From the IMG/VR virus record IMGVR_UViG_650377933_000002: a DNA stretch of 55,306 nt; one strand, 5' to 3'. Below are positions 27,686-40,176 of the stretch, in pieces. Every line of letters begins with the position of its first letter. Within the stretch, counting starts at the first letter, position 1. A program made the translations under genes and the position numbers. The DNA comes from a virus (lineage: Duplodnaviria > Heunggongvirae > Uroviricota > Caudoviricetes). Below the pieces are notes generated by a model, which did not search any database, was not told where the DNA came from, and worked only from the letters and a program-made list of their open reading frames with translations.

Positions 27686-28018
27686 ATGGCGACAAAAGAA
27701 GAGTTTAACCATTACCAGCCGCTGGGTAACAGTGATCCGGCTCATACAGCAATTGCGCCTGGCGGATTGAGTGCGAAAACGCCTGCAATGACCCCACTGA
27801 TGCTGGATGGCACTACCCGTAAGCTGGTTGTGTGGGATGGCACCACCGACGGTGCAGCCGTTGGCATTCTTGCGGTTGCTGCTGACCAGACCAGCACCAC
27901 ACTGACGTTCTACAAGTCCGGCTCGTTCCGTTATGAGGATGTGCTCTGGCCGGAGGCTGCCAGCGACGAGACGAAAAAACGGACCGCGTTTGCCGGAACG
28001 GCAATCAGCATCGTTTAA
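27686..28018 (+). CDS. D: head decoration protein D
   Basis: 110-aa ORF matching lambda gpD (..[30 protein letters not shown]...[64 protein letters not shown]). Confidence 0.9.
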
Positions 28019-28037
28019 TCTTCCCCTTCATCAACAA

Positions 28038-28060
28038 AGGCCGCCTGTGCGGCTTTTTTT
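28038..28060 (+). terminator. short hairpin plus T7 run between D and E (weak terminator-like element)
   Basis: GCCGC CTGT GCGGC followed by TTTTTTT; the stem is only 5 bp, so function is doubtful. Confidence 0.3.
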
Positions 28061-28073
28061 ATGGAAATAATTT

Positions 28074-28349
28074 ATGTCTGTATATACAACTGCAGAATTA
28101 CTGGCATCGACCCAGCATCACTTTAAGTTCGATCCGCTGTTTCTGCGCCTGTTTTTCCGTGAAACCTATCCTTTCACCACGGAAAAAGTCTATCTCTCAC
28201 AAATTCCGGGACTGGTAAACATGGCGCTGTACGTTTCGCCGATTGTTTCCGGTGAGGTTATCCGATCCCGTGGCGGCTCCACCTCTGAATTTACGCCGGG
28301 TTATGTCAAACCCAAGCACTTAGCATGGCTTTCTGAGGCTTTCGTGTAG
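28074..28349 (+). pseudogene. E: major capsid protein E, 5' fragment (interrupted by insertion)
   Basis: First 82 codons match lambda E (MS.YTTA.LLA.....FKFDPLFLRLFFRE.YPFTTEKVYLSQIPGLVNMALYVSPIVSGEVIRSRGGSTSEFTPGYVKPKH), then 9 unrelated codons and a stop; the remainder of E resumes at 39388. Confidence 0.9.
28309..28318. repeat. left copy of 10-bp direct repeat AACCCAAGCA (candidate att core)
   Basis: Identical 10-mer at both E/insert junctions (28309..28318 and 39386..39395). Confidence 0.65.
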
Positions 28350-28481
28350 TTGCTGGTTTTTACACTTAATCTTTTGATAATAAAGAATAAGTTTATCTGG
28401 CGCTTTCACTGAATTTTCCTCGTTATCTGTGTGTTGCAATCATCTCTGTATTGCAGCTTGTATTGCTTTTTGGGGCTAAAA

Positions 28482-29717
28482 ATGGCTGGCGAGAACAAAC
28501 TGAGCGACAAAGCGCTTAAAGGATATCTGGGGAAACCCAGAGAAAAGCAGATCACCATTGCTGATGGAAAGGGGCTTTCTATTCGTGTGAGTACTAAAGG
28601 GGCTGTGAGCTTTGTTTTCTTCTACAGGTTAGCAGGTGGCCGGGATGCTCCGGTCTGGCTAACGTTGGGTAAATATCCTGATATGTCACTCAAACAGGCA
28701 AGGGAAAAGCGCGACGAGTGCCGTGGTTGGTTGGCTGACAAACGTGATCCGCGTATCCAGATTAAGATTCAGGCTGAAGAACGCTTAAAGCCGGTCACAG
28801 TGGAGGATGCACTAAATTACTGGTATGAAAATTACTGTAAGGTGCGTCGTAAAACTCATGCTGTAACGCTTGGCAGATTTCGAAAGCATATCTTTCCCTA
28901 TATCGGTCATTTGCCCGTAAATGACACTCACCTATATGAATGGCTGGACTGTTTTGACCGAATTAAACGTAATGCACCAGTTATGGCGGCGTATGTTTTT
29001 TCTGACACTAAATTAGCTCTTCGTTTTTGTCGGGTACGCCAGTACGCGACGTGTGATGCTTTAAAGGATTTGCGCATGAGTGATGTGGGGCAGATTGCAG
29101 GTAAGCGGGATCGGGTTCTGGATGAAGCCGAACTGGGCCAGCTCTGGAAGGCAATTTTTGTCGAGCCTGATTTAAAACTAATGTCTGAATACACGCGAAA
29201 AATGTTTGTGCTTTGTACAGTATTTGGATGTCGAATGAGTGAAGCCCGATTATCTGAATGGAGCGAATGGGATCTCGAAAGTTGGGTTTGGACTGTACCA
29301 AAAGATCACTCAAAAACTGGTGTTGAAATCGTCAGACCAGTACCTGAAATTCTACGACAGTGGGTAACGGATGTTCACGAAGAGACAAAACATACTGGTT
29401 ATGTGCTGGGAAGTCTGCGAATTAGAGAAAGCGTAAGCAAGATTGGGGGGAAAATCGGTAAACGTTTGGGCCATGAAAAACAATGGTCACTACACGACCT
29501 TAGAAGAACGCTATCTACTCATCTAAGTGATCTCGGTGTTGAATTTTATGTAGTAGAACAACTGTTAGGCCATGCGCTACCTGGCGTGGCAGGTGTTTAC
29601 AACCGGAGTAAGTTTATGGCTAAAAAACTGGATGCTCTGGAACTCTGGACTACATATCTCAATAGCATCGCAGGTGCTGATTCAAAAGTGACAATCCTCA
29701 AACAAAAGGCTGGTTAA
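28482..29717 (+). CDS. int: P4-type tyrosine integrase of the inserted element
   Basis: ORF 28431..29717; plausible ATG at 28482 (MAGENKLSDKALKGYLGKP..); C-terminal catalytic region (..WSLHDLRRTLSTHLSDLGV....LLGHALPGVAGVYNRS..). Confidence 0.85.
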   Translation: MAGENKLSDKALKGYLGKPREKQITIADGKGLSIRVSTKGAVSFVFFYRLAGGRDAPVWLTLGKYPDMSLKQAREKRDECRGWLADKRDPRIQIKIQAEERLKPVTVEDALNYWYENYCKVRRKTHAVTLGRFRKHIFPYIGHLPVNDTHLYEWLDCFDRIKRNAPVMAAYVFSDTKLALRFCRVRQYATCDALKDLRMSDVGQIAGKRDRVLDEAELGQLWKAIFVEPDLKLMSEYTRKMFVLCTVFGCRMSEARLSEWSEWDLESWVWTVPKDHSKTGVEIVRPVPEILRQWVTDVHEETKHTGYVLGSLRIRESVSKIGGKIGKRLGHEKQWSLHDLRRTLSTHLSDLGVEFYVVEQLLGHALPGVAGVYNRSKFMAKKLDALELWTTYLNSIAGADSKVTILKQKAG

Positions 29718-29718
29718 C

Positions 29719-29946
29719 ATGAAAAAAATGGCAATTGTTGATAAAAAGGGTCTGGAGTACATTCCTAACATCGATCGTATGATCCGTGAGAAAGAATGTC
29801 GGGAGCTAACCACTCTTGCAAACAGCACACGCTGGAAGCTGGAGAAGGAAGGAAAATTTCCTAAGCGGATCAAGATTGGTTCCACTGCTGTTGCATATCG
29901 TCTTTCAGAAGTGCAGGCATGGATTCGAGGTGAGTGGGTAGTTTAA
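29719..29946 (+). CDS. alpA: AlpA-family transcriptional regulator/excisionase
   Basis: 75-aa ORF 1 nt after the int stop, with AlpA-like HTH (..RELTTLANSTRWKLEKEGKFPKRIKIGSTAVAYRLSEVQAWI..). Confidence 0.8.
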   Translation: MKKMAIVDKKGLEYIPNIDRMIREKECRELTTLANSTRWKLEKEGKFPKRIKIGSTAVAYRLSEVQAWIRGEWVV

Positions 29947-30015
29947 ATTATCTCAGAATAAAATATTATGAATTACTGATTTGAGAATTTGTACTCAAAT
30001 CAGTAATAACATTCT

Positions 30016-30552
30016 TTATAAGAGATTAAATCCAAATAAAGAGTAATCATATACCGGGGTGCATTGCATCCCACTGAATATGCTGATGTTTTTTTCTGTT
30101 TCTATCCTTTTTTCAATAAGTTGTTGTATATTTTTACAGTACAATTTGTGTGTGATGTTATTATCGTAAGCCTGATATAGCAACGTCAATGTTGACGCTA
30201 GGAAACATACAGATAAAATTAAAATAATATATGCAGTTTTTTTATTTTTTGTCCATGATCTATTTGTTTGTGAAATATAAAGAATTCTGAGGTGGATAAT
30301 GGTGAGAGACAATAGCAGGCCACTCAATAAAATAAGTATTGGGTTTGCGTATTTTATTAATGGTTGAGAGCAAAAAACTATTATAGCTCCTGTGACTGCG
30401 TATGAGAAAAAGGAGTGATTAAACTTCTTACTCCTTCTCTCAAGTATTTTAATTTCATCTTGCGTGGGGGTTTTAGATGCCTCTAATATAAGTTTATTGA
30501 ATTTTTCTGTTATCTTGTTTTTTGTGTTTGTGGCTATTTTTTTTAGATTCAT
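30016..30552 (-). CDS. hypothetical membrane protein (AT-rich accessory gene)
   Basis: 178-aa ORF in a very AT-rich segment; at least three hydrophobic helices (..VTGAIIVFCSQPLI..ILILLSGLLLSLTIIHL..AYIILILSVCFLASTLTLLY..). Confidence 0.45.
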   Translation of the reverse strand: MNLKKIATNTKNKITEKFNKLILEASKTPTQDEIKILERRSKKFNHSFFSYAVTGAIIVFCSQPLIKYANPILILLSGLLLSLTIIHLRILYISQTNRSWTKNKKTAYIILILSVCFLASTLTLLYQAYDNNITHKLYCKNIQQLIEKRIETEKNISIFSGMQCTPVYDYSLFGFNLL

Positions 30553-30902
30553 AGCATTCTAACTCCCTTAACTTATTTATTACTTTCTCTTTATGATAAG
30601 AGAGGGGAATGACTTGGTAAAGTGATTTGTCATTAATAATGATAATCCTTGCGATAAATATTTCTGCAAGTTATTTATCTGTTTGTTGCTATCTTGTTAA
30701 GCGTTGGGTGTGGTTTATGTTTGGAGTGACTTTATTTAATCGTGATTTTATGGATTTATATTTATATCCTGTAAGATAAGCGCATGTTAGTTCAGGAGTA
30801 GTGTCAGATAAAATTATTCGGAGTAGAACTACCTTTTCTGTTTATTGCCAGTATTTACATAGCAATGCGCCGTAGTTACTCACATCACGGCGCTGATACT
30901 AA

Positions 30903-31205
30903 TTATTCAGATTCTTTGGCTTTACGCCGCTGGAGTTCTTCACGAGCGACGGCTACGAGTTGCCCGATTTCCTCCGCTACCTTGATGCCGATTTGTTCGA
31001 CCTTAGCTAAGGCATCCAGTGAAGACACGAGGGGATTTTCTCCGCTTCCTTCTGCCTGGCGGCGGGCGATCTCACCGCGCATGGCGGTTACTATGAATCC
31101 GGCGTTGCTTTCGCCGTCCAGTTTTACGGATTCCATGCCCTCCATAACATCGTGGGGAACCCTGATCGTTGTCATTTGCGATTTTGCATTTTTGTATACA
31201 GACAT
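30903..31205 (-). CDS. putative transcriptional regulator of the element
   Basis: 100-aa ORF divergent from the replication operon and separated from it by an operator-like repeat region; charged coiled-coil-like C-terminus; function inferred from position only. Confidence 0.4.
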   Translation of the reverse strand: MSVYKNAKSQMTTIRVPHDVMEGMESVKLDGESNAGFIVTAMRGEIARRQAEGSGENPLVSSLDALAKVEQIGIKVAEEIGQLVAVAREELQRRKAKESE

Positions 31206-31413
31206 AGTTAATCACCAATTTGTTATGTGTATATCACTATACACAAAAGTGAGATATAAAAACACTTGCAATGTATATCACCACAATATAATGTATATCT
31301 CACATTATGGTCGCTATGTATCTCACAATGATCGATTCATAAAAACGACGAAACCCGGCAGTGCGCGAACACTAACCGGGCTTCTAACCAAACCGTTAAA
31401 CGAGGTAACGACT
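31206..31413. promoter_or_regulatory. divergent promoter region with repeated TGTATATC(A/T)CA operator-like motifs
   Basis: Four or more copies/inverted copies of GTGTATATCAC, GTGAGATATA, TGTATATCACC, TGTATATCTCACA, TGTATCTCACA within about 110 bp. Confidence 0.5.
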
Positions 31414-31704
31414 ATGGCTGGAACACAGCATACCCAAACTCACCCTAAATTTATATACATCTTTCTGGCGCTACATCGCGATCGCATAGCAGATGGAGCA
31501 ACTACGGTACATGTAGCCGCTGACACGCTGTTTATTCAGAAATGTGAAAACAATTTCATCTGGCGTTTTATCGCCCTGAGTACGGCACAACCGCGCGTGA
31601 TTACCATCGAGGCCACCAGCGAACAGGAAGCCCGCCAGCAATCCCCAACTGGCTGCGTGATGATATTCGCCGCCCGTATTCGTCAGGAGGTGTGCCATGA
31701 ATGA
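31414..31704 (+). CDS. hypothetical protein (first gene of the rightward operon)
   Basis: ORF 30865..31704 is long only because of an upstream GC-rich read-through; ATG at 31414 with GAGG RBS gives 96 aa; stop overlaps the next start. Confidence 0.4.
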   Translation: MAGTQHTQTHPKFIYIFLALHRDRIADGATTVHVAADTLFIQKCENNFIWRFIALSTAQPRVITIEATSEQEARQQSPTGCVMIFAARIRQEVCHE

Positions 31705-31921
31705 TCTTTATTTTAAAGTGCTGACACATGCTGAAAACGCGCTCGTTTGTGGCAAAAATATGCGAGAAATCTTATCAACCTGGCTTGATGGGACAACAAA
31801 TGCGGAACACGATGAACGGGATGCTAATTTAGCTGGAGCGTTAATTACGTTACTTGATCCTGTCATCAAAGAGCTGGATGAAGCTATAAAAATACACGAC
31901 CAGAGCTATACCGGAGAATAA
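31697..31921 (+). CDS. hypothetical protein
   Basis: 74-aa ORF, start overlapping the previous stop (translational coupling). Confidence 0.4.
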   Translation: MNDLYFKVLTHAENALVCGKNMREILSTWLDGTTNAEHDERDANLAGALITLLDPVIKELDEAIKIHDQSYTGE

Positions 31922-31923
31922 AA

Positions 31924-32211
31924 ATGAAAAATAAATTTTCTGGCTTTATTGCCAGCGGTCAAACTCATTCAAAAATCAGCCTTGGGGATATTTTCAAAGA
32001 TAGCTATGGCTATCGAGTAAAGATTATTTCGGTTGATGATCGCCGTGTCTCTTATTTGCGTGATGGTTATGATTTTGAATGTGTTATGCCGCGTCAGCAG
32101 TTCGAAAGAGATTTCATTCTGGTAAAAAATTGCAAGACAGATAATCAGAGGCGTTCCGCAGGCTATATCCGCAAAATTCGGGCAATGTTAGTTGCCGGAG
32201 GTAACAAATGA
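31924..32211 (+). CDS. hypothetical protein
   Basis: 95-aa ORF; stop overlaps the primase start. Confidence 0.4.
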   Translation: MKNKFSGFIASGQTHSKISLGDIFKDSYGYRVKIISVDDRRVSYLRDGYDFECVMPRQQFERDFILVKNCKTDNQRRSAGYIRKIRAMLVAGGNK

Positions 32212-34028
32212 AACGTGCTCCGAACTTAAAATACCAACCGCGCGACAAAATGACAGAAGTCATCATTTTTGCTGGCAGTGATGCCTGGAGCCATGCAAAA
32301 GAATGGAATGAATGGGCGGGTAAGCATATTGCAGCAGATGATACACCACCAGTCATTCTGGGTACGGAACAACTGGAAAACCTGGATGATATGCAAATTA
32401 TCGATGAAGGCCGTCATTATGTGCGTGTTTATCGTGCCGGAAAGATCGCAGAGAAAAATCTGACGAAGGTTGCGACATTACTTGCTATTGCAGGCGTAAA
32501 GGAAGCACGTTGTTACCGTAGCTTTGTTGATCGAGAGCCTGAAGACTGGACTCCGCGCCTTGTCGGCCTAAAAGCTGAAGCGGAGCATGGGGAAAGTCTG
32601 GTGATTGAACTGCCAGTGAAGAAGGCAGAGCGCAAAAATGACGAGCGTGCTTCATCTTTGGCGTTGAATCAGATGGGGGCCAGCCAGCGCGGTGAAGTTC
32701 TCCTGGCACATTACGGCGGCGAACTGGCAATCAATGCCGACTCTGACACCGTTCATCATTACAACGGCGTTGTATGGGAGCCGGTTCAGGATAAAGAGTT
32801 ACAGCGTGCTATGGCGCAGATTTTCATTGATGCGGAGATCAGCTATTCGCAGAACGCCATTAAATCGGCGGTAGATACCATGAAGTTAAGTTTGCCTGTA
32901 ATGGGGAATACAGCCCGTAACCTGATTGGATTCAGTAACGGGGTATTTGATACCAGAACTGGTAATTTTCGGGAGCATAACAAAAACGACTGGTTGTTAA
33001 TTGCCAGTGAATTACCTTTCAGCCCACCAGCAGAGGGGGAAACGCTGGCAACACATGCGCCGAATTTCTGGAAGTGGTTGCGCCGTTCGGTGGCTGAGAA
33101 TGACCGCAAGGCAGATCGCGTACTGGCGGCATTATTCATGGTGCTGGCGAACCGGTACGACTGGCAGTTATTCATTGAGGTAACAGGGCCGGGGGGAAGT
33201 GGTAAAAGTGTGATGGCGGAGATTTGCACCATGCTGGCGGGTAAGGCTAATACAGTATCAGCAAGCATGAAGGCGCTGGAAGATGCAAGGGAACGTGCGT
33301 TAGTGGTTGGCTTTTCGCTGATTATCATGCCGGATATGACCCGCTACGCTGGTGATGGGGCAGGGATTAAGGCCATTACAGGCGGTGACAAGGTGGCAAT
33401 TGACCCGAAACACAAAGCCCCCTATTCAACGCGTATTCCGGCAGTAGTGCTGGCGGTTAACAATAACGCCATGTCATTCAGTGACCGCAGCGGGGGGATC
33501 TCACGTCGTCGGGTGATATTCAATTTTTCGGAAGTTGTACCGGAGAACGAACGCGATTCGATGCTGGCGGAAAAAATAGAAGGTGAGCTGGCGGTAGTGA
33601 TTCGCCATCTGCTTACACGGTTTGCTGATCAGGACGAAGCCAGACGCCTGTTATATGAGCAGCAGAAATCTGAAGAAGCACTGGCGATAAAGCGAGAGGG
33701 GGATTCGCTGGTGGACTTCTGCGGCTATCTCATGGCATCGGTAATGTGTGATGGCCTGTTAGTGGGTAATGCTGAAATTGTGCCATTCAGCCCACGCAGG
33801 TATCTCTATCATGCCTATCTGGCTTATATGAGGGCACATGGGTTTGGTAAACCTGTAACACTGACGCGCTTCGGTAAAGATATGCCGGGGGCAATGGCGG
33901 AATATGGCAGGGAGTATATGAAACGGAAAACGAAGCACGGTTTGCGTTCAAACGTGACACTGACGGAGGAATCAGAAGACTGGATGCCATCATGTGTATC
34001 GGTCACTAATGACGATAGCAAAAATTAA
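32208..34028 (+). CDS. primase/helicase (P4-alpha-like, SF3-type P-loop NTPase)
   Basis: 606-aa ORF with GGAGG RBS; Walker A VTGPGGSGKS and downstream Walker B-like acidic stretch (LIIMPDMT); followed by an iteron array. Confidence 0.8.
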   Translation: MKRAPNLKYQPRDKMTEVIIFAGSDAWSHAKEWNEWAGKHIAADDTPPVILGTEQLENLDDMQIIDEGRHYVRVYRAGKIAEKNLTKVATLLAIAGVKEARCYRSFVDREPEDWTPRLVGLKAEAEHGESLVIELPVKKAERKNDERASSLALNQMGASQRGEVLLAHYGGELAINADSDTVHHYNGVVWEPVQDKELQRAMAQIFIDAEISYSQNAIKSAVDTMKLSLPVMGNTARNLIGFSNGVFDTRTGNFREHNKNDWLLIASELPFSPPAEGETLATHAPNFWKWLRRSVAENDRKADRVLAALFMVLANRYDWQLFIEVTGPGGSGKSVMAEICTMLAGKANTVSASMKALEDARERALVVGFSLIIMPDMTRYAGDGAGIKAITGGDKVAIDPKHKAPYSTRIPAVVLAVNNNAMSFSDRSGGISRRRVIFNFSEVVPENERDSMLAEKIEGELAVVIRHLLTRFADQDEARRLLYEQQKSEEALAIKREGDSLVDFCGYLMASVMCDGLLVGNAEIVPFSPRRYLYHAYLAYMRAHGFGKPVTLTRFGKDMPGAMAEYGREYMKRKTKHGLRSNVTLTEESEDWMPSCVSVTNDDSKN

Positions 34029-34039
34029 ACTTATGGAAT

Positions 34040-34275
34040 AACTGTTCACCACTGTTCACCCTGTCATAAATATCTTTTATATCAGTATATTATAGGGTGA
34101 ACAGTTATTTATGAACTGTTCACCAAACTATTCACTGTTCACCTTTTTGATTGTTTATTGAGCTTCAAGGGTGAACAGTAGTGAACAGTTGGTGAATAGT
34201 TTTTGTGAAACTGTTCACCCATTAACATTATGAATTAAAAGAGAAAATATCAAAAGGTGAACAGGTGAAGGGTTA
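34040..34275. repeat. iteron array (about 9 copies of CTGTTCACC in both orientations), candidate replication origin of the element
   Basis: ACTGTTCACC at 34041 and 34051, GGGTGAACAGTT at 34095, AACTGTTCACC at 34114, CACTGTTCACC at 34133, GGGTGAACAGTAGTGAACAGTTGGTGAATAG at 34169..34199, CTGTTCACCC at 34211, GGTGAACAGGTGAAG at 34257. Confidence 0.75.
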
Positions 34276-34315
34276 AAACGCAAAAATTTTAATTTACTGC
34301 TGTGAGATAAAGCCT

Positions 34316-34561
34316 ATGACAGCGAAGCACACAAAAAAATCACAATCGCACGCCCTTGATTTGACGGAACACTGGTTAAGGGTGTCGATAAAAATCATCG
34401 ACCGCAACGCCGGGGAAGGATACGCGAAAGCACATCCCGAACTGATTAGCGCATTCATGACAACGGCGGCTGCAAACTTTGCCACTCTGACCGAACGGGA
34501 GATTGCTGAAGCGGAGGAAGTGACAACAATCAATATTAAGTCCGGAGAGCAGGCAGCATGA
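34316..34561 (+). CDS. hypothetical protein
   Basis: 81-aa ORF; stop overlaps the start of the downstream SSB-like gene (ATGA). Confidence 0.4.
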   Translation: MTAKHTKKSQSHALDLTEHWLRVSIKIIDRNAGEGYAKAHPELISAFMTTAAANFATLTEREIAEAEEVTTINIKSGEQAA

Positions 34562-35007
34562 CGGCGCAAATATCAGTTTACGGGCGGTTGGTGGACGACC
34601 CGCAGACAAAACAGACCAGCAAGGGCACCCCCATGACGCTGGCGCGTATGGCGTTATCACTGCCCTGCAGTCAGTCGGATGACGGTCAGGCGACGATGTG
34701 GTTATCTGTCCTGGCGTTTGGCAGACAAGCCGACGCGCTGGCAAAGCATCACAAAGGCGAACTCCTGAGCGTGGCGGGTAATATGCAGGTGAGCCAGTGG
34801 ACTGGACAGAACGGTGAAACGCGGCAGGGCTGGCAGGTTATCGCAGACAGCGTAATCAGTGCGCGAACGGTGCGACCGGGCGGCAAAAAAGGTCAACAGG
34901 GTCAGGCTACTGACGCACTGAACAGAGCAAAACAACAGGCAGATCAGCAAGGAAGCCATCCACCAGTGGGAGATAATGAACAATGGGGAGATGATATTCC
35001 GTTTTAA
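34558..35007 (+). CDS. SSB-like single-stranded DNA-binding protein
   Basis: 149-aa ORF ending in the canonical SSB acidic tail ..DDIPF preceded by a Gly/Gln-rich linker. Confidence 0.7.
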   Translation: MTAQISVYGRLVDDPQTKQTSKGTPMTLARMALSLPCSQSDDGQATMWLSVLAFGRQADALAKHHKGELLSVAGNMQVSQWTGQNGETRQGWQVIADSVISARTVRPGGKKGQQGQATDALNRAKQQADQQGSHPPVGDNEQWGDDIPF

Positions 35008-35224
35008 ATATTGCCAATAAAAAAGGCCGGAAAAAAATAAATTTTCCGGCATGCTACATAAATCCCGACCAAAGGGAGTGAAGATATTAACACTAATTAT
35101 CCGCGCTGAAGTTGTTATCCCAAAACTTTATACAACATTGCACTCGGTTGCATGTATTCGCATGACAAATATCGGTGATAGCATATATCCACAATTATTT
35201 TTAATGAATGCAAAGAGGATGCGT

Positions 35225-36265
35225 ATGGTTGATTTATATTCGCCTACCCAGCTTGTACAGGTGGTTAATGCTGTAGATGTACAAAAACAACTAAATGCGT
35301 TGTTTACCAGTTTGTTTTTTACTCGCTCGGTAATGTTTGAATCGCGCGATATTATTCTTGATACAATCGACGATCCAAATATCCCAATTGCAGCGTTTTG
35401 TTCTCCTATGGTGGGTAGTAAAGTTTCACGTGACGAAGGGTACGAATCAAAAACAATTCGTCCAGGCTATATGAAGCCGAAAAGCAGCATTGATCCAAAT
35501 AAGTTAGCTGTGCGCCCTGCTGGTGTATCACCTGAGCAATACAATGCTTTTGGAGCGCGTAATATTAAAGTTAAACAGGCGATTGTAAATCAGGCTAAAG
35601 CTATTCGTGCACGTATTGAATGGCTTGCCGTTCAGGCAATCACAACGGGGAAAAATATCATTGAGGGCGATGGTATTGAACGTTATGAGCTGGACTGGAA
35701 TATTAAACCACAAAATATCATCACTCAGTCTGGCGGTGCTGAGTGGTCAGGTAAGGATAAAGAAACTTTTGATCCAAATGATGATATTGAGAGCTACGCA
35801 GAATTTAGTGAGGGCGTCACTAATATCATCATTATGGGCGGTAATGTATGGAAGAAATACCGTTCATTCAGAGCGATAAAAGAGGCTCTGGATACCCGTC
35901 GTGGTTCTAATTCCGAACTGGAAACGGCTCTTAAAGACCTTGGTGATTCGGTGAGTTTTAAAGGGTATATGGGCGATGTTGCGATTGTTGTATACAGCGG
36001 GCGTTATACCGACGAGGACGGAACTGAAAAACATTTCCTTGATCCTGATTTGATGGTGCTTGGCAATACGGCTCTTCAGGGGATTGTCGCCTATGGCGGT
36101 ATTCAGGATCCGGAGCTAATCCGAATGGGGCTGACTAAAGCCGAACTTGCACCGAAAAACTATATTGTGCCTGGTGATCCGGCTATTGAATATGTGCAGA
36201 CACATTCAGCACCACAGCCAATACCGGCCCGCATCAATCGTTTTGTTACCGTTCGCATTGGCTAA
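35225..36265 (+). CDS. lambda E-like major capsid protein encoded by the inserted element
   Basis: ORF 35051..36265; ATG at 35225 with AAGAGG RBS gives 346 aa; clear homology to lambda E (RPGYMKPKSSIDP / ITQSGGAEWSGKDKETFDPNDDIESYAE / DTRRGSNSELETALKDLGDSVSFKGYMGDVAIVVYSGRY versus lambda TPGYVKPKHEVNP / ITQSGGTEWSKRDKSTYDPTDDIEAYAL / DTRRGSNSELETAVKDLGKAVSYKGMYGDVAIVVYSGQY). Confidence 0.8.
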   Translation: MVDLYSPTQLVQVVNAVDVQKQLNALFTSLFFTRSVMFESRDIILDTIDDPNIPIAAFCSPMVGSKVSRDEGYESKTIRPGYMKPKSSIDPNKLAVRPAGVSPEQYNAFGARNIKVKQAIVNQAKAIRARIEWLAVQAITTGKNIIEGDGIERYELDWNIKPQNIITQSGGAEWSGKDKETFDPNDDIESYAEFSEGVTNIIIMGGNVWKKYRSFRAIKEALDTRRGSNSELETALKDLGDSVSFKGYMGDVAIVVYSGRYTDEDGTEKHFLDPDLMVLGNTALQGIVAYGGIQDPELIRMGLTKAELAPKNYIVPGDPAIEYVQTHSAPQPIPARINRFVTVRIG

Positions 36266-36274
36266 GGGGGAGCA

Positions 36275-36616
36275 ATGGCTACTCATTACACTGAACTCAT
36301 GGCTGGCACTGAAGCACTGGTGACTACGCTGGGGATATTTTCAGCTAATAAAGGGGTAATTCCTGCATTTACGCCACTGATGCAGGAAGATGCAACAGGT
36401 GCACTGGTGGTATGGGATGGTTCGAGCGTAGGTAAAGCGGTTTATGTTTCCGCTGTACAAATCGACACCGCGAAAAAAACACAGGCTCAGGTCTATAAGA
36501 CAGGTGTCTTAAATGTTGATGCTCTGAACTGGCCTGAGTCTGTAAAAGAACTGTCAGTAAAGATTGCAGCGTTTGTTGGCTCAGGTATTTCTGTTCAGCC
36601 GCTGGCTCGTGTGTAA
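36275..36616 (+). CDS. D-like head decoration protein encoded by the inserted element
   Basis: 113-aa ORF directly after the E-like gene; weaker similarity to lambda D (..ALVVWDGSSVGKAVYVSAV.. / ..AAFVGSGISV.. versus ..[19 protein letters not shown].. / ..[11 protein letters not shown]). Confidence 0.55.
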   Translation: MATHYTELMAGTEALVTTLGIFSANKGVIPAFTPLMQEDATGALVVWDGSSVGKAVYVSAVQIDTAKKTQAQVYKTGVLNVDALNWPESVKELSVKIAAFVGSGISVQPLARV

Positions 36617-36627
36617 AGGGGGATACA

Positions 36628-37011
36628 ATGCAGAATGATTACAATGACCTTAAGCCAATTGCCGAAATGATGTACCCGAATCCAGCTGTAGAGGAATTAA
36701 AAGCTATCGCTGACAAAATGTGTTTAAGCGAGCGCCTTGTTGATATGAATCAGGTGATGGAAATTACAACCCTGAGTCGGCGTACACTGCTAAACCTTGA
36801 GGCTAGTGGAGAGTTCCCGGAGCGTGTGCAGGTTACGGAAGGGCGTAAGGCCTGGTATTTAAGTGAAGTGATCGACTGGATAAATAATATTCCTCGCGCT
36901 TCTGAATATTGCCGCGTACCTGTCCCAAAAAAGCCAGATGCGGCGCTATGCCTCAAGATTGAGCGTGTACGCCGCAATGCACGGGATGGTCGCTATAAGC
37001 TGATTGGTTGA
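36628..37011 (+). CDS. AlpA-like HTH DNA-binding protein directly upstream of the element cos site
   Basis: 127-aa ORF; central AlpA-like motif (..MNQVMEITTLSRRTLLNLEASGEFPERVQVTEGRKAWYLSEVIDWI..). Confidence 0.5.
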   Translation: MQNDYNDLKPIAEMMYPNPAVEELKAIADKMCLSERLVDMNQVMEITTLSRRTLLNLEASGEFPERVQVTEGRKAWYLSEVIDWINNIPRASEYCRVPVPKKPDAALCLKIERVRRNARDGRYKLIG

Positions 37012-37019
37012 TGAAATTA

Positions 37020-37256
37020 GGGCCCGCTCTGGCTGGCGGGTCCTTTCCGGCGATCTGACAGGCTACGGGGCGTCAGGCGCGCAGTTTTTCTCTATTTATG
37101 GAAATTTTCCGGTTTAAGGCATTTCCGTTCTTCTTCGCCGTAACTTTATGTTTTTATTTAAAATACCCCCTGAAAAGAAAGGAAATGACAGGCGCTGAAA
37201 ACGGGCATTTTGGCCTCTGTCGTTTCCTTTCTCTGTTTTTGTCCGTGGAATGAACA
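37020..37256 (+). other. second cos-like site carried by the inserted element (divergent cosN, conserved cosB)
   Basis: About 215 bp homologous to the phage cos/Nu1 leader at 21901..22117; cosB side nearly identical (..TATTTATG.AAATTTTCCGGTTTAAGGC.TTTCCGTTCTTCTTCGCCGTAAC..GAAAAGAAAGGAAA.GACAGG.GCTGAAAACGGGC.TTTT.GCCTCTGTCGTTTCCTTTCTCTGTTTTTGTCCGTGGAATGAACAATG) but the cosN segment differs (ACGGGGCGTCAGGCGCGCAG versus ACGGGGCGGCGACCTCGCGG). Confidence 0.8.
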
Positions 37257-37451
37257 ATGGAAGTCAACAAAGATCAACTGGCTGACATTTTGGGCAAGAG
37301 TTGTGCAATACTTTTGTCAGACGTAAATATTTTTGAGGAACATTATTATATTGATGTAATTAGAGATATGTTTGATAGGACTAGAAATAAAGCAGACGCC
37401 TTAGTTATGTCAATTGCTGAAATAATAAAGGAAAATAGCAATGATAAATAG
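37257..37451 (+). pseudogene. Nu1 5' remnant fused to unrelated AT-rich sequence
   Basis: First about 12 codons resemble Nu1 (MEVNKDQLADILG versus MEVNKKQLADIFG) then diverge into AT-rich sequence; 64-codon ORF ends at a convergent terminator. Confidence 0.5.
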
Positions 37452-37453
37452 AA

Positions 37454-37477
37454 AAAAGCGGTCACGCGACCGCTTTT
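37454..37477. terminator. bidirectional intrinsic terminator between convergent genes
   Basis: AAAAGCGGTC ACG CGACCGCTTTT palindromic hairpin flanked by A-run and T-run. Confidence 0.65.
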
Positions 37478-37514
37478 ATTATTTGCAAGTTATTTTTTTG
37501 CTGGAGATAAACTA

Positions 37515-38063
37515 TTACTGTTCACCAATTTGCTCTCTAAACTGTGTACTGAACGTATCTAGTTGAGAGACAAATGAATGTGCATTTAAAAATTTATTAT
37601 AAATCTCTTCAGCTGTGCTTTCTAATACAAAAGTAGCATAATTATTATGTGCTAATTTATTTCTTAGCTCTCCGATTTCCATAAAATCAGAGATAGACTT
37701 GGTCAACTCTGTGCTTGATTTTACCTTCTCAATCATAAACTCTTTAAATTTTGGGCCAAAAAAGGAAAAAAACTGGTTTGCATTCCTTTTTTTCCAATCA
37801 AAGAGTGTATGATACTGCCTGGTTAGGGCCTTATTATCGATAAAATCGTGTGTAAGATTACATTGGCTTGGGTTAAGCATACAATGTATCTTAGTTACAA
37901 CTAAAGTTTCAAAATAGCTAGCACATGCTAATAGCATTACTTTTGAAAATTGTGATTTGTAATCATTAGCAAAACTAATCTCATTATGAGTTAGAAGAAA
38001 ATCATAATAACACTTATAGTTATTAAACATACTTTCAATAGAAGTATATCCCATATCCTCCAT
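37515..38063 (-). CDS. HEPN-like protein (Rx4H motif), downstream gene of the DUF262 operon
   Basis: ORF 37515..38096 (GTG); ATG at 38063 lies 4 nt after the upstream stop; C-terminal ..EIGELRNKLAHNNY.. fits the HEPN Rx4-6H motif; strongly AT-rich. Confidence 0.5.
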   Translation of the reverse strand: MEDMGYTSIESMFNNYKCYYDFLLTHNEISFANDYKSQFSKVMLLACASYFETLVVTKIHCMLNPSQCNLTHDFIDNKALTRQYHTLFDWKKRNANQFFSFFGPKFKEFMIEKVKSSTELTKSISDFMEIGELRNKLAHNNYATFVLESTAEEIYNKFLNAHSFVSQLDTFSTQFREQIGEQ

Positions 38064-38067
38064 TATT

Positions 38068-39231
38068 TTACATTCCCTCCAAAATTGTTCTTGCACGTTC
38101 TAGACGTCCAATTACATGCTCTCTTCTTGTTGTTTTATCAGTACTAAATGTCAGAAATTCAGGATCATTTTTAAGCTTATCGATGTAATTCACCGTCACT
38201 TGTCTTATTTTTAGATCTTTATCTTTAAATGAGTCATAAGTTGCAGCATAAAAAATTGACTCAAATAAAGTTATACTCATACGATTCCCACCAGTTCTGA
38301 AATTGATTTCATCAATTCCATCAACACTATCCATAAATTCATTCCATATATTACTAAATAAAGTTATGTCTTTAGTGTCGTAGTTTTTTGCATAATTTGA
38401 GAAATTGTTCAAAAAACCGCTAACTGAGCTTTTGTATTGAGATGTAAAAAGGGACATAGCAAATGTGCGCAATATCGCTTCAATATCACTCAATCGCATG
38501 TCAACAACATTTTTTGAAAGAATTTTTCTCCATGTCTTGTTTTCATTCAATGAAACAAGATTTGAAAGAAAGTCTGAGTGATATAAACTCATACGAATTT
38601 CTTGAGGAGAAAGGTTCATTCCCCCACTATTTAGGCGGTTAAATATTTCAAACATTGCACCATCTTCCGAATCTTGTGCAACCGGTTTGATTACCATATT
38701 TCGTATGGTTGCCAGATTTAAAGTGGTTTGAAATTCGTTTAATGTTTCATAGTTTTTCCCATTAAACTTGTTTTTTTGGGTGTCTGATAGACCATCAAGT
38801 TTTAGGTTGAACTTTGTGAAGTATTCATCATTGTGAAGAATGTTTTCTGGAATGTTTCCATTATCTTCAAAGATTTTTCTCAGTTCAGAACGTTTCTCTT
38901 TTCTAGGGAATACACCATTTACAAAGTAATAAAGGGTCATTAATCTCTGCTGACCATCTATCACTAAAAATTCATTTTTATCTTGTTCATATAAAAATAT
39001 TTGAGGTATAGGAAGGCCTATTAAAAGAGATTCAATGAGTTTTGATGCTCGTTTGATATCCCAAACATAATGCCTTTGAAAGTTAGGGATTTTAAAAACT
39101 TTTGATTTAATAAAACTTATAATTGTGATTATATTAAAATCATTGGGCGTAGTAGTAAGTTGAAACTCATCAATTGGATAGGATTCTGGCTCATCCTCGT
39201 ATTGCTTTTCTTCATAATCTTCTGGTTGCAT
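38068..39231 (-). CDS. DUF262 (ParB-like nuclease/NTPase superfamily) protein
   Basis: ORF 38068..39279 (GTG); ATG at 39231 (MQPEDYEE..) preceded by AAGGA; hallmark DUF262 motif ..FLVIDGQQRLMTLYYF..; strongly AT-rich. Confidence 0.7.
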   Translation of the reverse strand: MQPEDYEEKQYEDEPESYPIDEFQLTTTPNDFNIITIISFIKSKVFKIPNFQRHYVWDIKRASKLIESLLIGLPIPQIFLYEQDKNEFLVIDGQQRLMTLYYFVNGVFPRKEKRSELRKIFEDNGNIPENILHNDEYFTKFNLKLDGLSDTQKNKFNGKNYETLNEFQTTLNLATIRNMVIKPVAQDSEDGAMFEIFNRLNSGGMNLSPQEIRMSLYHSDFLSNLVSLNENKTWRKILSKNVVDMRLSDIEAILRTFAMSLFTSQYKSSVSGFLNNFSNYAKNYDTKDITLFSNIWNEFMDSVDGIDEINFRTGGNRMSITLFESIFYAATYDSFKDKDLKIRQVTVNYIDKLKNDPEFLTFSTDKTTRREHVIGRLERARTILEGM

Positions 39232-39385
39232 CGTGTCATCCTTTTTCTTCGTGAATATGGTTTTTAGACAAGTCCTCACTACACATATCTGTATTGCAGA
39301 AAGTATTGCAGTGATAGGAGTTGCGTAGATATATAAACCACAAAGCTAAGTGAAATCAAATAGTTCTTTCGGGATTGACTCATGT

Positions 39386-39395
39386 AACCCAAGCA
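39386..39395. repeat. right copy of 10-bp direct repeat AACCCAAGCA (candidate att core)
   Basis: Identical to 28309..28318; immediately followed by the in-frame continuation of E. Confidence 0.65.
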
Positions 39396-40176
39396 TGAGG
39401 TGAATCCGCAGATGACCCTGCGTCGCCTGCCGGATGAAGATCCGCAGAACCTGGCTGACCCGGCTTACCGTCGTCGCCGTATTATTCGGCAGAATATGCT
39501 GGATGAAAATCTGGCGATTGCCCAGGTCGAAGAGATGCAGGCAGTTTCTGCCGTGCTTAAGGGCAAATATACCATGACCGGTGAAGCCTTCGATCCGGTT
39601 GAGGTGGATATGGGCCGCAGTGAGGCGAATAACATCACGCAGTCCGGCGGCACGGAGTGGAGCAAGCGTGACAAGTCCACGTATGACCCGACCGACGATA
39701 TCGAAGCCTACGCGCTGAACGCCAGCGGTGTGGTGAATATCATCGTGTTTGATCCGAAAGGCTGGGCGCTGTTCCGTTCCTTCAAAGCCGTCAAGGAGAA
39801 GCTGGATACCCGTCGCGGCTCTCATTCCGAGCTGGAGACAGCGGTAAAAGACCTGGGCAAAGCGGTGTCTTATAAGGGAATGTATGGCGATGTGGCCATC
39901 GTCGTGTATTCCGGACAGTACGTGGAAAACGGCGTCAAAAAGAACTTCCTGCCGGACAACACGATGGTGCTGGGGAACACTCAGGCACGCGGTCTGCGCA
40001 CCTATGGTTGCATTCAGGATGCGGACGCACAGCGCGAAGGCATTAACGCCTCTGCCCGTTACCCGAAAAACTGGGTGACCACCGGCGACCCGGCGCGTGA
40101 GTTCACCATGATTCAGTCAGCACCGCTGATGCTGCTGGCTGACCCTGATGAGTTCGTGTCTGTACAACTGGCGTAA
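39388..40176 (+). pseudogene. E: major capsid protein E, 3' fragment (codons 80-341)
   Basis: In-frame from CCC AAG CAT GAG GTG AAT CCG CAG (PKHEVNPQMTLRRLPDEDPQNLADPAYRRRRII..SVQLA), matching the lambda E C-terminal 259 aa; joined to 28074..28319 it gives a full 341-aa E. Confidence 0.9.

Follow-up and report, generated by a model that had tools for sequence, protein, structure and literature searches.

The DNA analysed here, referred to as the window, is a stretch of 55,306 nucleotides from a Caudoviricetes record in IMG/VR (IMGVR_UViG_650377933_000002), in which a satellite of ~11 kb breaks the major capsid gene of a lambdoid prophage and is co-oriented with it (Table 1). The leading part of the satellite carries int, alpA, a leftward membrane ORF, and a leftward gene for a 100-aa protein. 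A rightward operon comprises genes for an Icd-like protein, orf74, DUF4222, a D5/P4-type primase, orf81, and SSB; the remaining genes encode a lambda gpE-like capsid protein, a gpD-like decoration protein, a second AlpA-like protein, and a leftward HEPN/DUF262 pair. The split capsid gene hence encloses int, alpA, primase, SSB, and the satellite's own capsid gene, which identifies the element as a helper-embedded PICI. This capsid-inserted arrangement is already known, as it fits the published type at the capsid-E site ('11capE'; Tommasini et al. 2023, PMC10111431). An 802-bp query from the window, reaching from the regulator to icd, finds a 100% match in E. coli L1PEag1 (NZ_CP145513). At the right end of the satellite, the HEPN-domain gene and the DUF262 gene overlap by 29 bp and likely constitute an accessory anti-phage defence. 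A strong GC hairpin flanked by A/U runs (AAAAAGCGGUCACGCGACCGCUUUU) at 37441-37534 is probably a bidirectional terminator between convergent genes; a sub-threshold Rfam match to MicX at the same position is explained by this hairpin and was dismissed.

Table 1. Positions in the window of the satellite, its genes, and the observed or predicted elements of its control region.
Feature	Position	Strand	Remarks
Satellite	about 28431-39400		
Major capsid gene of the prophage, halves	28074-28349 and 39400-40176		
alpA	29719-29946		1.3 kb upstream of the repeats
100-aa YlcI/YnfO-family gene	30903-31205	-	putative repressor
Site A	31227-31237	+	GTGTATATCAC; overlaps the -10/start region of P_L
Putative -10 of leftward promoter P_L	31236-31241	-	TATAGT on the minus strand
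Site B	31249-31259	- (inverted)	TTATATCTCAC on the minus strand; between the two promoters
Putative -35 of rightward promoter P_R	31266-31271	+	TTGCAA; TTGACn in most relatives
Site C	31271-31281	+	ATGTATATCAC; occupies the P_R spacer at its 5' side
Putative -10 of P_R	31289-31294	+	TAATGT; 17-nt spacer
Site D	31293-31303	+	GTATATCTCAC; overlaps the -10 and predicted start of P_R
Site E	31316-31326	+	ATGTATCTCAC; early transcribed leader
Predicted cis-antisense RNA, ~80 nt	31340-31419	-	over the Icd-like Shine-Dalgarno sequence and start codon
Stem-loop 2 of antisense RNA	31350-31384	-	with U-rich tail; predicted terminator
Stem-loop 1 of antisense RNA	31386-31419	-	anti-Shine-Dalgarno CCUC in loop; pairs over AUG
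Icd-like gene, 96 aa	31414-31704	+	first of the rightward operon; Shine-Dalgarno GAGG at 31402-31405
Putative -10 of antisense RNA promoter	31427-31432	-	TATGCT, inside Icd-like codons 5-7
D5/P4-type primase gene	32208-34028	+	reached by the operon starting at 31414
gpE-like capsid gene of the satellite	35051/35223-36265		
gpD-like decoration gene	36275-36616		
Second AlpA-like gene	36628-37011		
HEPN-domain and DUF262 genes	37515-39279	-	

The 100-aa gene and the Icd-like gene are separated by a gap of 208 bp. For this interval (31206-31413), a first-pass annotation had claimed at least four repeats within about 110 bp, lying between a leftward gene for a 100-aa protein and a rightward operon that leads to the primase. 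Both flanking genes are as claimed and the number of repeats is slightly exceeded: Five copies of an 11-bp site with the consensus (G/A)T(G/A)-TAT(A/C)T-CAC, four direct and one inverted, occupy the 100 bp from 31227 to 31326, and their centres are 22, 22, 22, and 23 bp apart, which corresponds to about two helical turns. The cluster is not a product of chance, as judged by a mismatch-tolerant motif count and by shuffling: With at most one mismatch, TGTATATCWCA has six matches in the 55-kb window, five of them at 31228-31327, where 1.39 are expected, and a count of six is reached in none of 100 shuffles. The core TATMTCAC yields nine exact matches, five of which fall within 98 bp (31230-31326), versus 2.2 expected for the whole window, and a separate repeat search recovers the same copies. 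The repeats are confined to the left part of the annotated interval; its right third (31340-31413) holds the predicted gene of a structured antisense RNA instead, which the first-pass annotation had overlooked. We discarded a sixth candidate at 31450-31460 (ATGTATATAAA, minus strand), whose sequence does not end in CAC and is also present in two loci of other operator classes (L002 and L003); it therefore reflects conservation of the coding sequence or of the antisense promoter.

Two putative back-to-back promoters, P_L and P_R, can be placed among these sites. A consensus scan of 30800-31800 for promoters and terminators called neither of them because their hexamers in the window are weak, P_R matching just 7 of 12 consensus positions; we assigned both by alignment with related loci, from which we infer that they act as promoters. 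At the -10 position of P_L, nearly all loci have a TATACA/TATACT box; a recognisable -35 for P_L was not found in the window. The assignment of P_R draws on the 70 non-redundant loci scored, in which TTGNNN is followed immediately 3' by site C; in the window, site C starts on the last base of the -35 hexamer. Loci of the same operator class carry TATTTT, TAAAGT, or TAACGT as -10 of P_R at the same spacing. An alternative -10, TATAAT at 31287-31292 with a 15-nt spacer, was set aside because same-class loci do not keep it. As a separate observation, a perfect DnaA box TTATCCACA followed by GGT(A/G)A..CACAGG lies just downstream of site D in L009, L010, L012, L013, and L015. This box is conserved where the rightward leader begins, in satellites of five genera, with none in the window, and DnaA may modulate the rightward promoter in the elements that have it.

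The protein encoded to the left of the sites belongs to the YlcI/YnfO family (NCBIfam NF041551, 70.7 bits versus a cut-off of 30, residues 8-49), and the identical RefSeq protein is likewise annotated YlcI/YnfO. It consists of an N-terminal ribbon-helix-helix (RHH)-like domain (residues ~8-53) and a long C-terminal helix (residues 58-99). The N-terminal domain is modelled with the topology of an RHH protein, that is strand/helix/helix within ~45 residues and a G-x-S/T/N turn between the helices, and its motif RxPxEV…G(E)S(N) aligns with RWPREV…NGRSVN of Arc; hhalign against Arc gives a probability of 7% and an E-value of 0.005. Some homologues are named 'Arc-like DNA binding domain' in UniRef. 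Searches of Pfam returned no family at E <= 0.01; with thresholds relaxed, PF07704 is matched weakly by 21 of the 28 homologues, the best E-value being 0.0011, which does not reach the cut-off of that family. A sequence search of the PDB with the family profile gave nothing useful, and no curated RHH family model scores above threshold. For the latter reason, we grade the RHH fold as moderately supported and do not claim membership in a named RHH family. A C-terminal segment LDALAKVEQIGIKVAEEIGQLV (residues ~62-85; window 30951-31022) shows a weak helix-hairpin-helix likeness to Hef (E 0.059), and AlphaFold2 places it inside one long helix. In the literature searched, from which most subscription journals are absent, we found no functional account of the YlcI/YnfO family; its members are termed 'prophage-associated' there and are noted beside Icd in Enterobacter cf-PICIs. 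In several relatives, the regulator is adjoined by AntA/AntB, BRO-N, or ORF6N genes.

The comparison across related loci is based on 22 homologous loci, drawn from complete genomes of E. coli and from a set with one genome per species; five loci found by exact-protein look-up and about 114 stretches from IMG/VR were added. One and the same gap layout recurs in ~90 loci from Enterobacterales genomes and IMG/VR contigs, spanning E. coli, Yersinia, Enterobacter, Xenorhabdus, Photorhabdus, Serratia, Pantoea, and Lelliottia: The regulator start codon is followed by ~20 nt, a site, the TATACA box, a second site, an A-tract, TTGACn, a third site, ~10 nt with TAAnnT, and a further site, and the spacing of the sites is ~22-23 bp in every class. 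The sites share the general frame TG-N5-CAC with a 5-nt core which is uniform within a locus and variable between loci. This core tracks the N-terminal strand of the adjacent YlcI-like protein over 17 strand classes, related loci inflating the apparent covariation. Additional copies of the site-C core of a locus occur on average 2.17 times in its own region versus 0.38 times in regions of other classes. The same strand class goes along with the same core in separate genera: KSQLTTVRVP with TGTGTTTCA in E. coli and Xenorhabdus/Photorhabdus, KSKQISIRIP with TGTGATTCA in E. coli and Yersinia, and the class of the window, KSQMTT[ILV]R[VI]P, with GTAT(A/C)TC(T)CAC in E. coli, Yersinia, and Enterobacter. 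Further pairs are KSQSLTARIP with TGTAAGCCAC, KSQTVAARVP with TGTT(C/T)AACAC, KSQALKARVP with TGGGCCACAC, and KSTQIASRVP with TGGTTAGCAC. An exception is KSQQLNARFP, for which two cores were seen, TGGTATTCAC and TGCGATTCAC; these two sets of loci are distinguished by the residue that opens helix B (N or Q). Consequently, the strand is not the sole determinant, and the code from strand to site is not one to one.

Within the class of the window, represented by loci from Yersinia enterocolitica, Enterobacter ludwigii, other E. coli, and IMG/VR, all five sites are kept in order and orientation while the spacers diverge. Site A is retained in same-class loci L024-L028 and L038/52/60/67, sites B and D are kept as well, and site E is kept although the sequence between D and E varies. 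Sites D and E are direct repeats in this class; site D is inverted in most other classes.

The covariation bears directly on the question of which protein reads the repeats, for which the first-pass annotation had named two candidates, the 100-aa protein and AlpA. Particularly informative is the locus of APEC E12049 (L021): Between 29401 and about 31100 of the window, from the end of int via alpA and the membrane ORF through the C-terminal two thirds of the regulator gene, the two sequences are ~99% identical. From ~31100-31150 onward, that is inside the 100-aa gene, the identity collapses: The regulator strand of L021 is KSQLTTVRVP and its sites are TGTGTTTCA, whereas the sites of the window are TGTATATCAC. 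A near-identical alpA gene together with a different regulator N-terminus and different sites means that the sites travel with the N-terminus of the regulator and not with AlpA. This sharp recombination junction separates the predicted DNA-binding N-terminus and the putative operators from the conserved C-terminal helix and, as read from these sequences, shows a route by which specificity would be exchanged. Of the two candidate binders, the 100-aa protein is thus favoured. That AlpA should occupy the repeats as an activator and switch the rightward operon on is suggested by the proximity of alpA, by the presence of a second AlpA-like gene, and by the activation of PICI genes by AlpA in EcCICFT073 (PMC6092414). 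We nonetheless consider this very unlikely, given that L021 encodes AlpA under the same protein accession (WP_000737991.1) next to other sites and another YlcI N-terminus, and that an overlap with spacer, -10, and start is the typical position of a repressor.

The same positions speak to the direction of regulation, which had initially been left open as repression or activation. Sites C and D lie within the core promoter in every class, and for this reason repression is favoured over activation. The known RHH proteins at such positions, for instance Arc, Mnt, CopG, and omega, are repressors. It is unlikely, if less so than a role of AlpA, that the YlcI-like protein binds the sites as an activator or dual regulator of P_R, for example by offsetting its weak -10: While P_R is weak by consensus and site B is located just upstream of the -35, in the place of a class I activator, the 17-nt spacer of P_R is not of the MerR type (19-20 nt), and the location of sites C and D is that of a repressor in all classes.

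Short phased repeats in A+T-rich intergenic DNA could also be iterons of a replication origin which are bound by the primase or an initiator, and the DnaA box just downstream of site D in several relatives would fit such a role. The repeats of the gap lie, however, upstream of the operon, and it is the YlcI N-terminus and not the primase that they covary with; L002 and L016 have a RepA-type helicase in place of the primase with the layout unchanged. Moreover, a separate and denser cluster, in which ACTGTTCACC / GGTGAACAGT recurs in at least 10 copies and both orientations, is located at 34037-34266 directly downstream of the primase gene, and PICI origins have been reported downstream of pri (PMC10111431). 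This second cluster is probably the replication origin of the satellite, and an iteron function of the repeats in the gap appears extremely improbable. Rfam matches to miRNA families at 34100-34216 were dismissed, as they are caused by the inverted repeats of the origin. Finally, the sites might be read by a regulator of the helper phage, which would then control the satellite directly. Such a reading is attractive insofar as the satellite resides inside the late operon of its helper, to which its induction has to be linked (PMC10111431); it is made very improbable by the occurrence of the same site classes at unrelated integration sites (L002 beside tRNA-Pro, others beside different integrases), and by the fact that these classes go with the regulator encoded on the satellite itself.

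Conservation in the region is highest in the right-hand part of the gap, and many partial matches of the 802-bp query (H16-H39) fall on or near query positions 441-567. On the minus strand, this part is predicted to encode a cis-antisense RNA that folds into two hairpins, the first of which presents CCUC opposite the GAGG Shine-Dalgarno sequence of the Icd-like gene. Folding of the minus strand yields an MFE of -30.8 kcal/mol (z -4.73), compared with -19.1 kcal/mol (z -1.45) for the plus strand, and all of the first 18 loci display this asymmetry in favour of the minus strand. In a covariation set of 95 distinct sequences, which comprises two register subclasses, 1059 of 1100 and 1075 of 1079 pair cells are canonical on the minus strand versus 935 and 885 on the plus strand; the 95 sequences further contain 323 G·U versus 9 A·C cells and compensatory changes at 13 pair positions (8 + 5 per subclass). 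The G·U and A·C counts together with the canonical pairs identify the minus strand as the functional one. Hairpins of the plus strand, either as a leader structure or as a sense RNA of the c4/CI type, were rejected, as they are contradicted by the G·U/A·C counts and the folding energies. A putative promoter for the RNA lies within the target: Of 62 distinct sequences, 61 have a TAnnnT hexamer exactly 7 nt upstream of the 5' 'AGC' of the RNA, and such a hexamer is very rare at adjacent offsets. The conserved hexamer takes forms such as TATGCT, TATGAT, TATAAT, and TAGACT, is retained where the overlapping codons encode other residues, and is without a good -35.

With respect to its family, the RNA matches the Rfam model symR (RF01809) over its full length (minus strand, 31347-31419) with 33.6 bits, the gathering score being 61; full-length matches on the antisense strand recur in L004, L012, L013, L024, and L027 with 30.0-38.7 bits, likewise below threshold. 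The C4 and isrK models were without a match both in 28000-40000 (E <= 1) and in 16 related loci (E <= 10). The RNA has the form of SymR, namely that of a two-hairpin cis-antisense RNA which covers 5' UTR, Shine-Dalgarno sequence, and start codon and whose putative promoter resides in the coding sequence of the target; this target is Icd-like (NCBIfam NF033153, 78.5 bits versus a cut-off of 25, with the same annotation on the identical record), not a symE gene with an AbrB fold. Because the form is shared while the score remains below 61 bits and the target is unrelated, we call the RNA SymR-like and do not assign it to the Rfam family. It is SymR-like in form and probably also in action, which would consist in a block of translation and possibly in mRNA decay.

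Taken together, we consider it likely that the five repeats are operators of the 100-aa protein, which would act as a repressor that silences P_R and autoregulates P_L, and that the antisense RNA backs up this repression. The original reading of the repeats, as sites by which the satellite's own regulator gates the replication operon, gains support from the covariation and the promoter anatomy. Mechanistically, the 100-aa protein would bind DNA via its predicted Arc/Mnt-like RHH domain, and its long helix would probably join dimers. Dimers bound to the five pseudo-palindromic sites would be positioned on one face of the DNA and, linked by their C-terminal helices, might coat ~100 bp. Occupation of sites C and D would occlude spacer, -10, and start of P_R, thereby keeping the operon from the Icd-like gene via DUF4222, primase, and SSB to the capsid gene silent as long as the satellite remains in the chromosome of its host prophage; sites A and B would cover P_L and allow the repressor to regulate its own synthesis. 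Site E possibly adds cooperativity or serves as a roadblock. The antisense RNA (31419→~31340) would be made constitutively and pair with the leader, the Shine-Dalgarno sequence, and the AUG of the Icd-like mRNA, which would stop the translation of leaky or read-through transcripts and thus provide a probable second lock. As candidates for derepression we envisage an antirepressor encoded by the helper or the satellite, AlpA, or read-through from the late operon of the helper into the embedded satellite.

Several established systems resemble parts of this arrangement. The immI region of P22 comprises the RHH repressors Mnt and Arc as well as the sar antisense RNA, and Mnt combines an N-terminal RHH with a C-terminal helical oligomerisation domain. 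The parallels to the satellite are a divergently encoded small repressor, predicted here to be of the RHH type, with operators inside the core promoter, a short antisense RNA over the ribosome-binding site of the downstream gene, and, with regard to Mnt, the RHH-plus-helix layout predicted for the 100-aa protein. In contrast to the one 21-bp operator of P22, the satellite has five phased 11-bp sites over 100 bp, and it differs further by its many exchangeable specificity classes, its location on a satellite rather than a phage, a sequence similarity to Arc that is not significant, and an RNA that targets the first gene and resembles SymR, not sar. The omega repressor of inc18 plasmids is an RHH protein that binds arrays of 7-bp repeats in direct or inverted orientation. 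Multiple short repeats of mixed orientation and a cooperative coating of promoters by RHH dimers, the latter proposed here, are common to both, and the TATCAC end of the site in the window is similar to the omega heptad WATCACW; the heptads are, however, contiguous whereas the sites are 22 bp apart, and the genetic context is another. In P1, immI is organised as c4 RNA, icd, and ant. A comparable CI immunity RNA exists in P4, and immunity RNAs are known in Gram-negative PICIs (PMC10111431). As predicted for the satellite, a small RNA in P1 and P4 blocks the icd-type first gene of an early operon; c4 and CI are, however, processed from the sense transcript and have short target sites, while the RNA described here would originate from the opposite strand.

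Similar in form is the SymR RNA of E. coli K-12, an antisense RNA of 77 nt that is transcribed from a promoter within symE and together with LexA keeps SymE off (Kawano et al. 2007, PMC1891008). Both are cis-antisense RNAs of ~77-80 nt with a promoter inside the first codons of the target, as predicted here; both start with 5' AG(U/C)CAUA antisense to the AUG, form two hairpins with an anti-Shine-Dalgarno sequence in or near the first loop, and share the linker UUGUG(A/G)UUAG and the loop GUGUU.GCGCAC. The two RNAs fit one consensus fold in which 11 of 27 pairs are changed on both sides. The target promoter is also controlled by a protein repressor at an upstream operator, which is LexA in K-12 and, according to our prediction, an element-encoded protein in the satellite. 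The context of the latter is a mobile satellite, and a BLASTP comparison of SymE with the Icd-like protein gave no match. With respect to the life cycle of the element, the counterparts are Stl/Rpr, the master repressors of Gram-positive PICIs such as SaPIs; for Gram-negative PICIs, a global repressor has been described as unclear (PMC6092414). The proposed repressor would correspond to Stl/Rpr as a divergently encoded protein between integration and replication modules that holds the island quiescent. Stl/Rpr differ in being larger and of a different protein type, and derepression by helper proteins is established for Stl whereas it is a guess here.

The design as such, in which a small RHH repressor acts on operators at divergent promoters and an antisense RNA provides back-up, is already familiar from P22 immI and from symE/LexA/SymR. 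What appears to be new within the literature searched is the putative role of a YlcI/YnfO protein as an operator-binding regulator of Gram-negative satellites, the many seemingly exchangeable specificities with a predicted operator of five sites phased at 22 bp, and a SymR-like cassette, present in a large proportion of E. coli genomes, that would guard the Icd-like gene at the head of the operon. In this literature, which omits most subscription journals, we found no description of the repressor and its operators or of the antisense RNA in satellites. The putative repressor matters because the presence of one in such Gram-negative satellites was unclear. On a larger scale it is possible, and put forward here tentatively, that the YlcI/YnfO RHH protein is the missing master repressor of a large group of Gram-negative PICIs and related satellites and thereby the functional counterpart of Stl/Rpr, that it exists in at least 17 interchangeable immunity types generated by intragenic recombination and is accompanied by a SymR-family RNA, and that symE-SymR of K-12 is a diverged relative of the satellite cassette. 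If the 100-aa protein is the repressor, this would provide a direct handle on the silence of satellites and their waking by helpers, explain the mosaic 'immunity' region with its many specificities, and supply a collection of small, mutually orthogonal repressor/operator pairs. With the antisense RNA, SymR-type control would no longer be confined to a single chromosomal toxin gene but extend to a mobile cassette that is widespread, which suggests a possible source of symE-SymR.

Among 5426 complete E. coli genomes, 1851 match the 802-bp query at least in part, but just 104 contain 80% or more of its length, and many of the partial matches span merely the Icd-like gene or the RNA. Among the 114 IMG/VR stretches with the RNA pattern, 45 are without a YlcI-type strand motif nearby, a few of these being chance matches of the pattern; the RNA/Icd-like cassette thus seemingly also occurs with other or no neighbouring regulators. 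Two copies of the module formed by SymR-like RNA and leader are present in L016 (1492-1620 and 2362-2480) and in L038 (9714 and 10500), where one copy belongs to a truncated second regulator-icd unit, which suggests tandem or decayed satellites.
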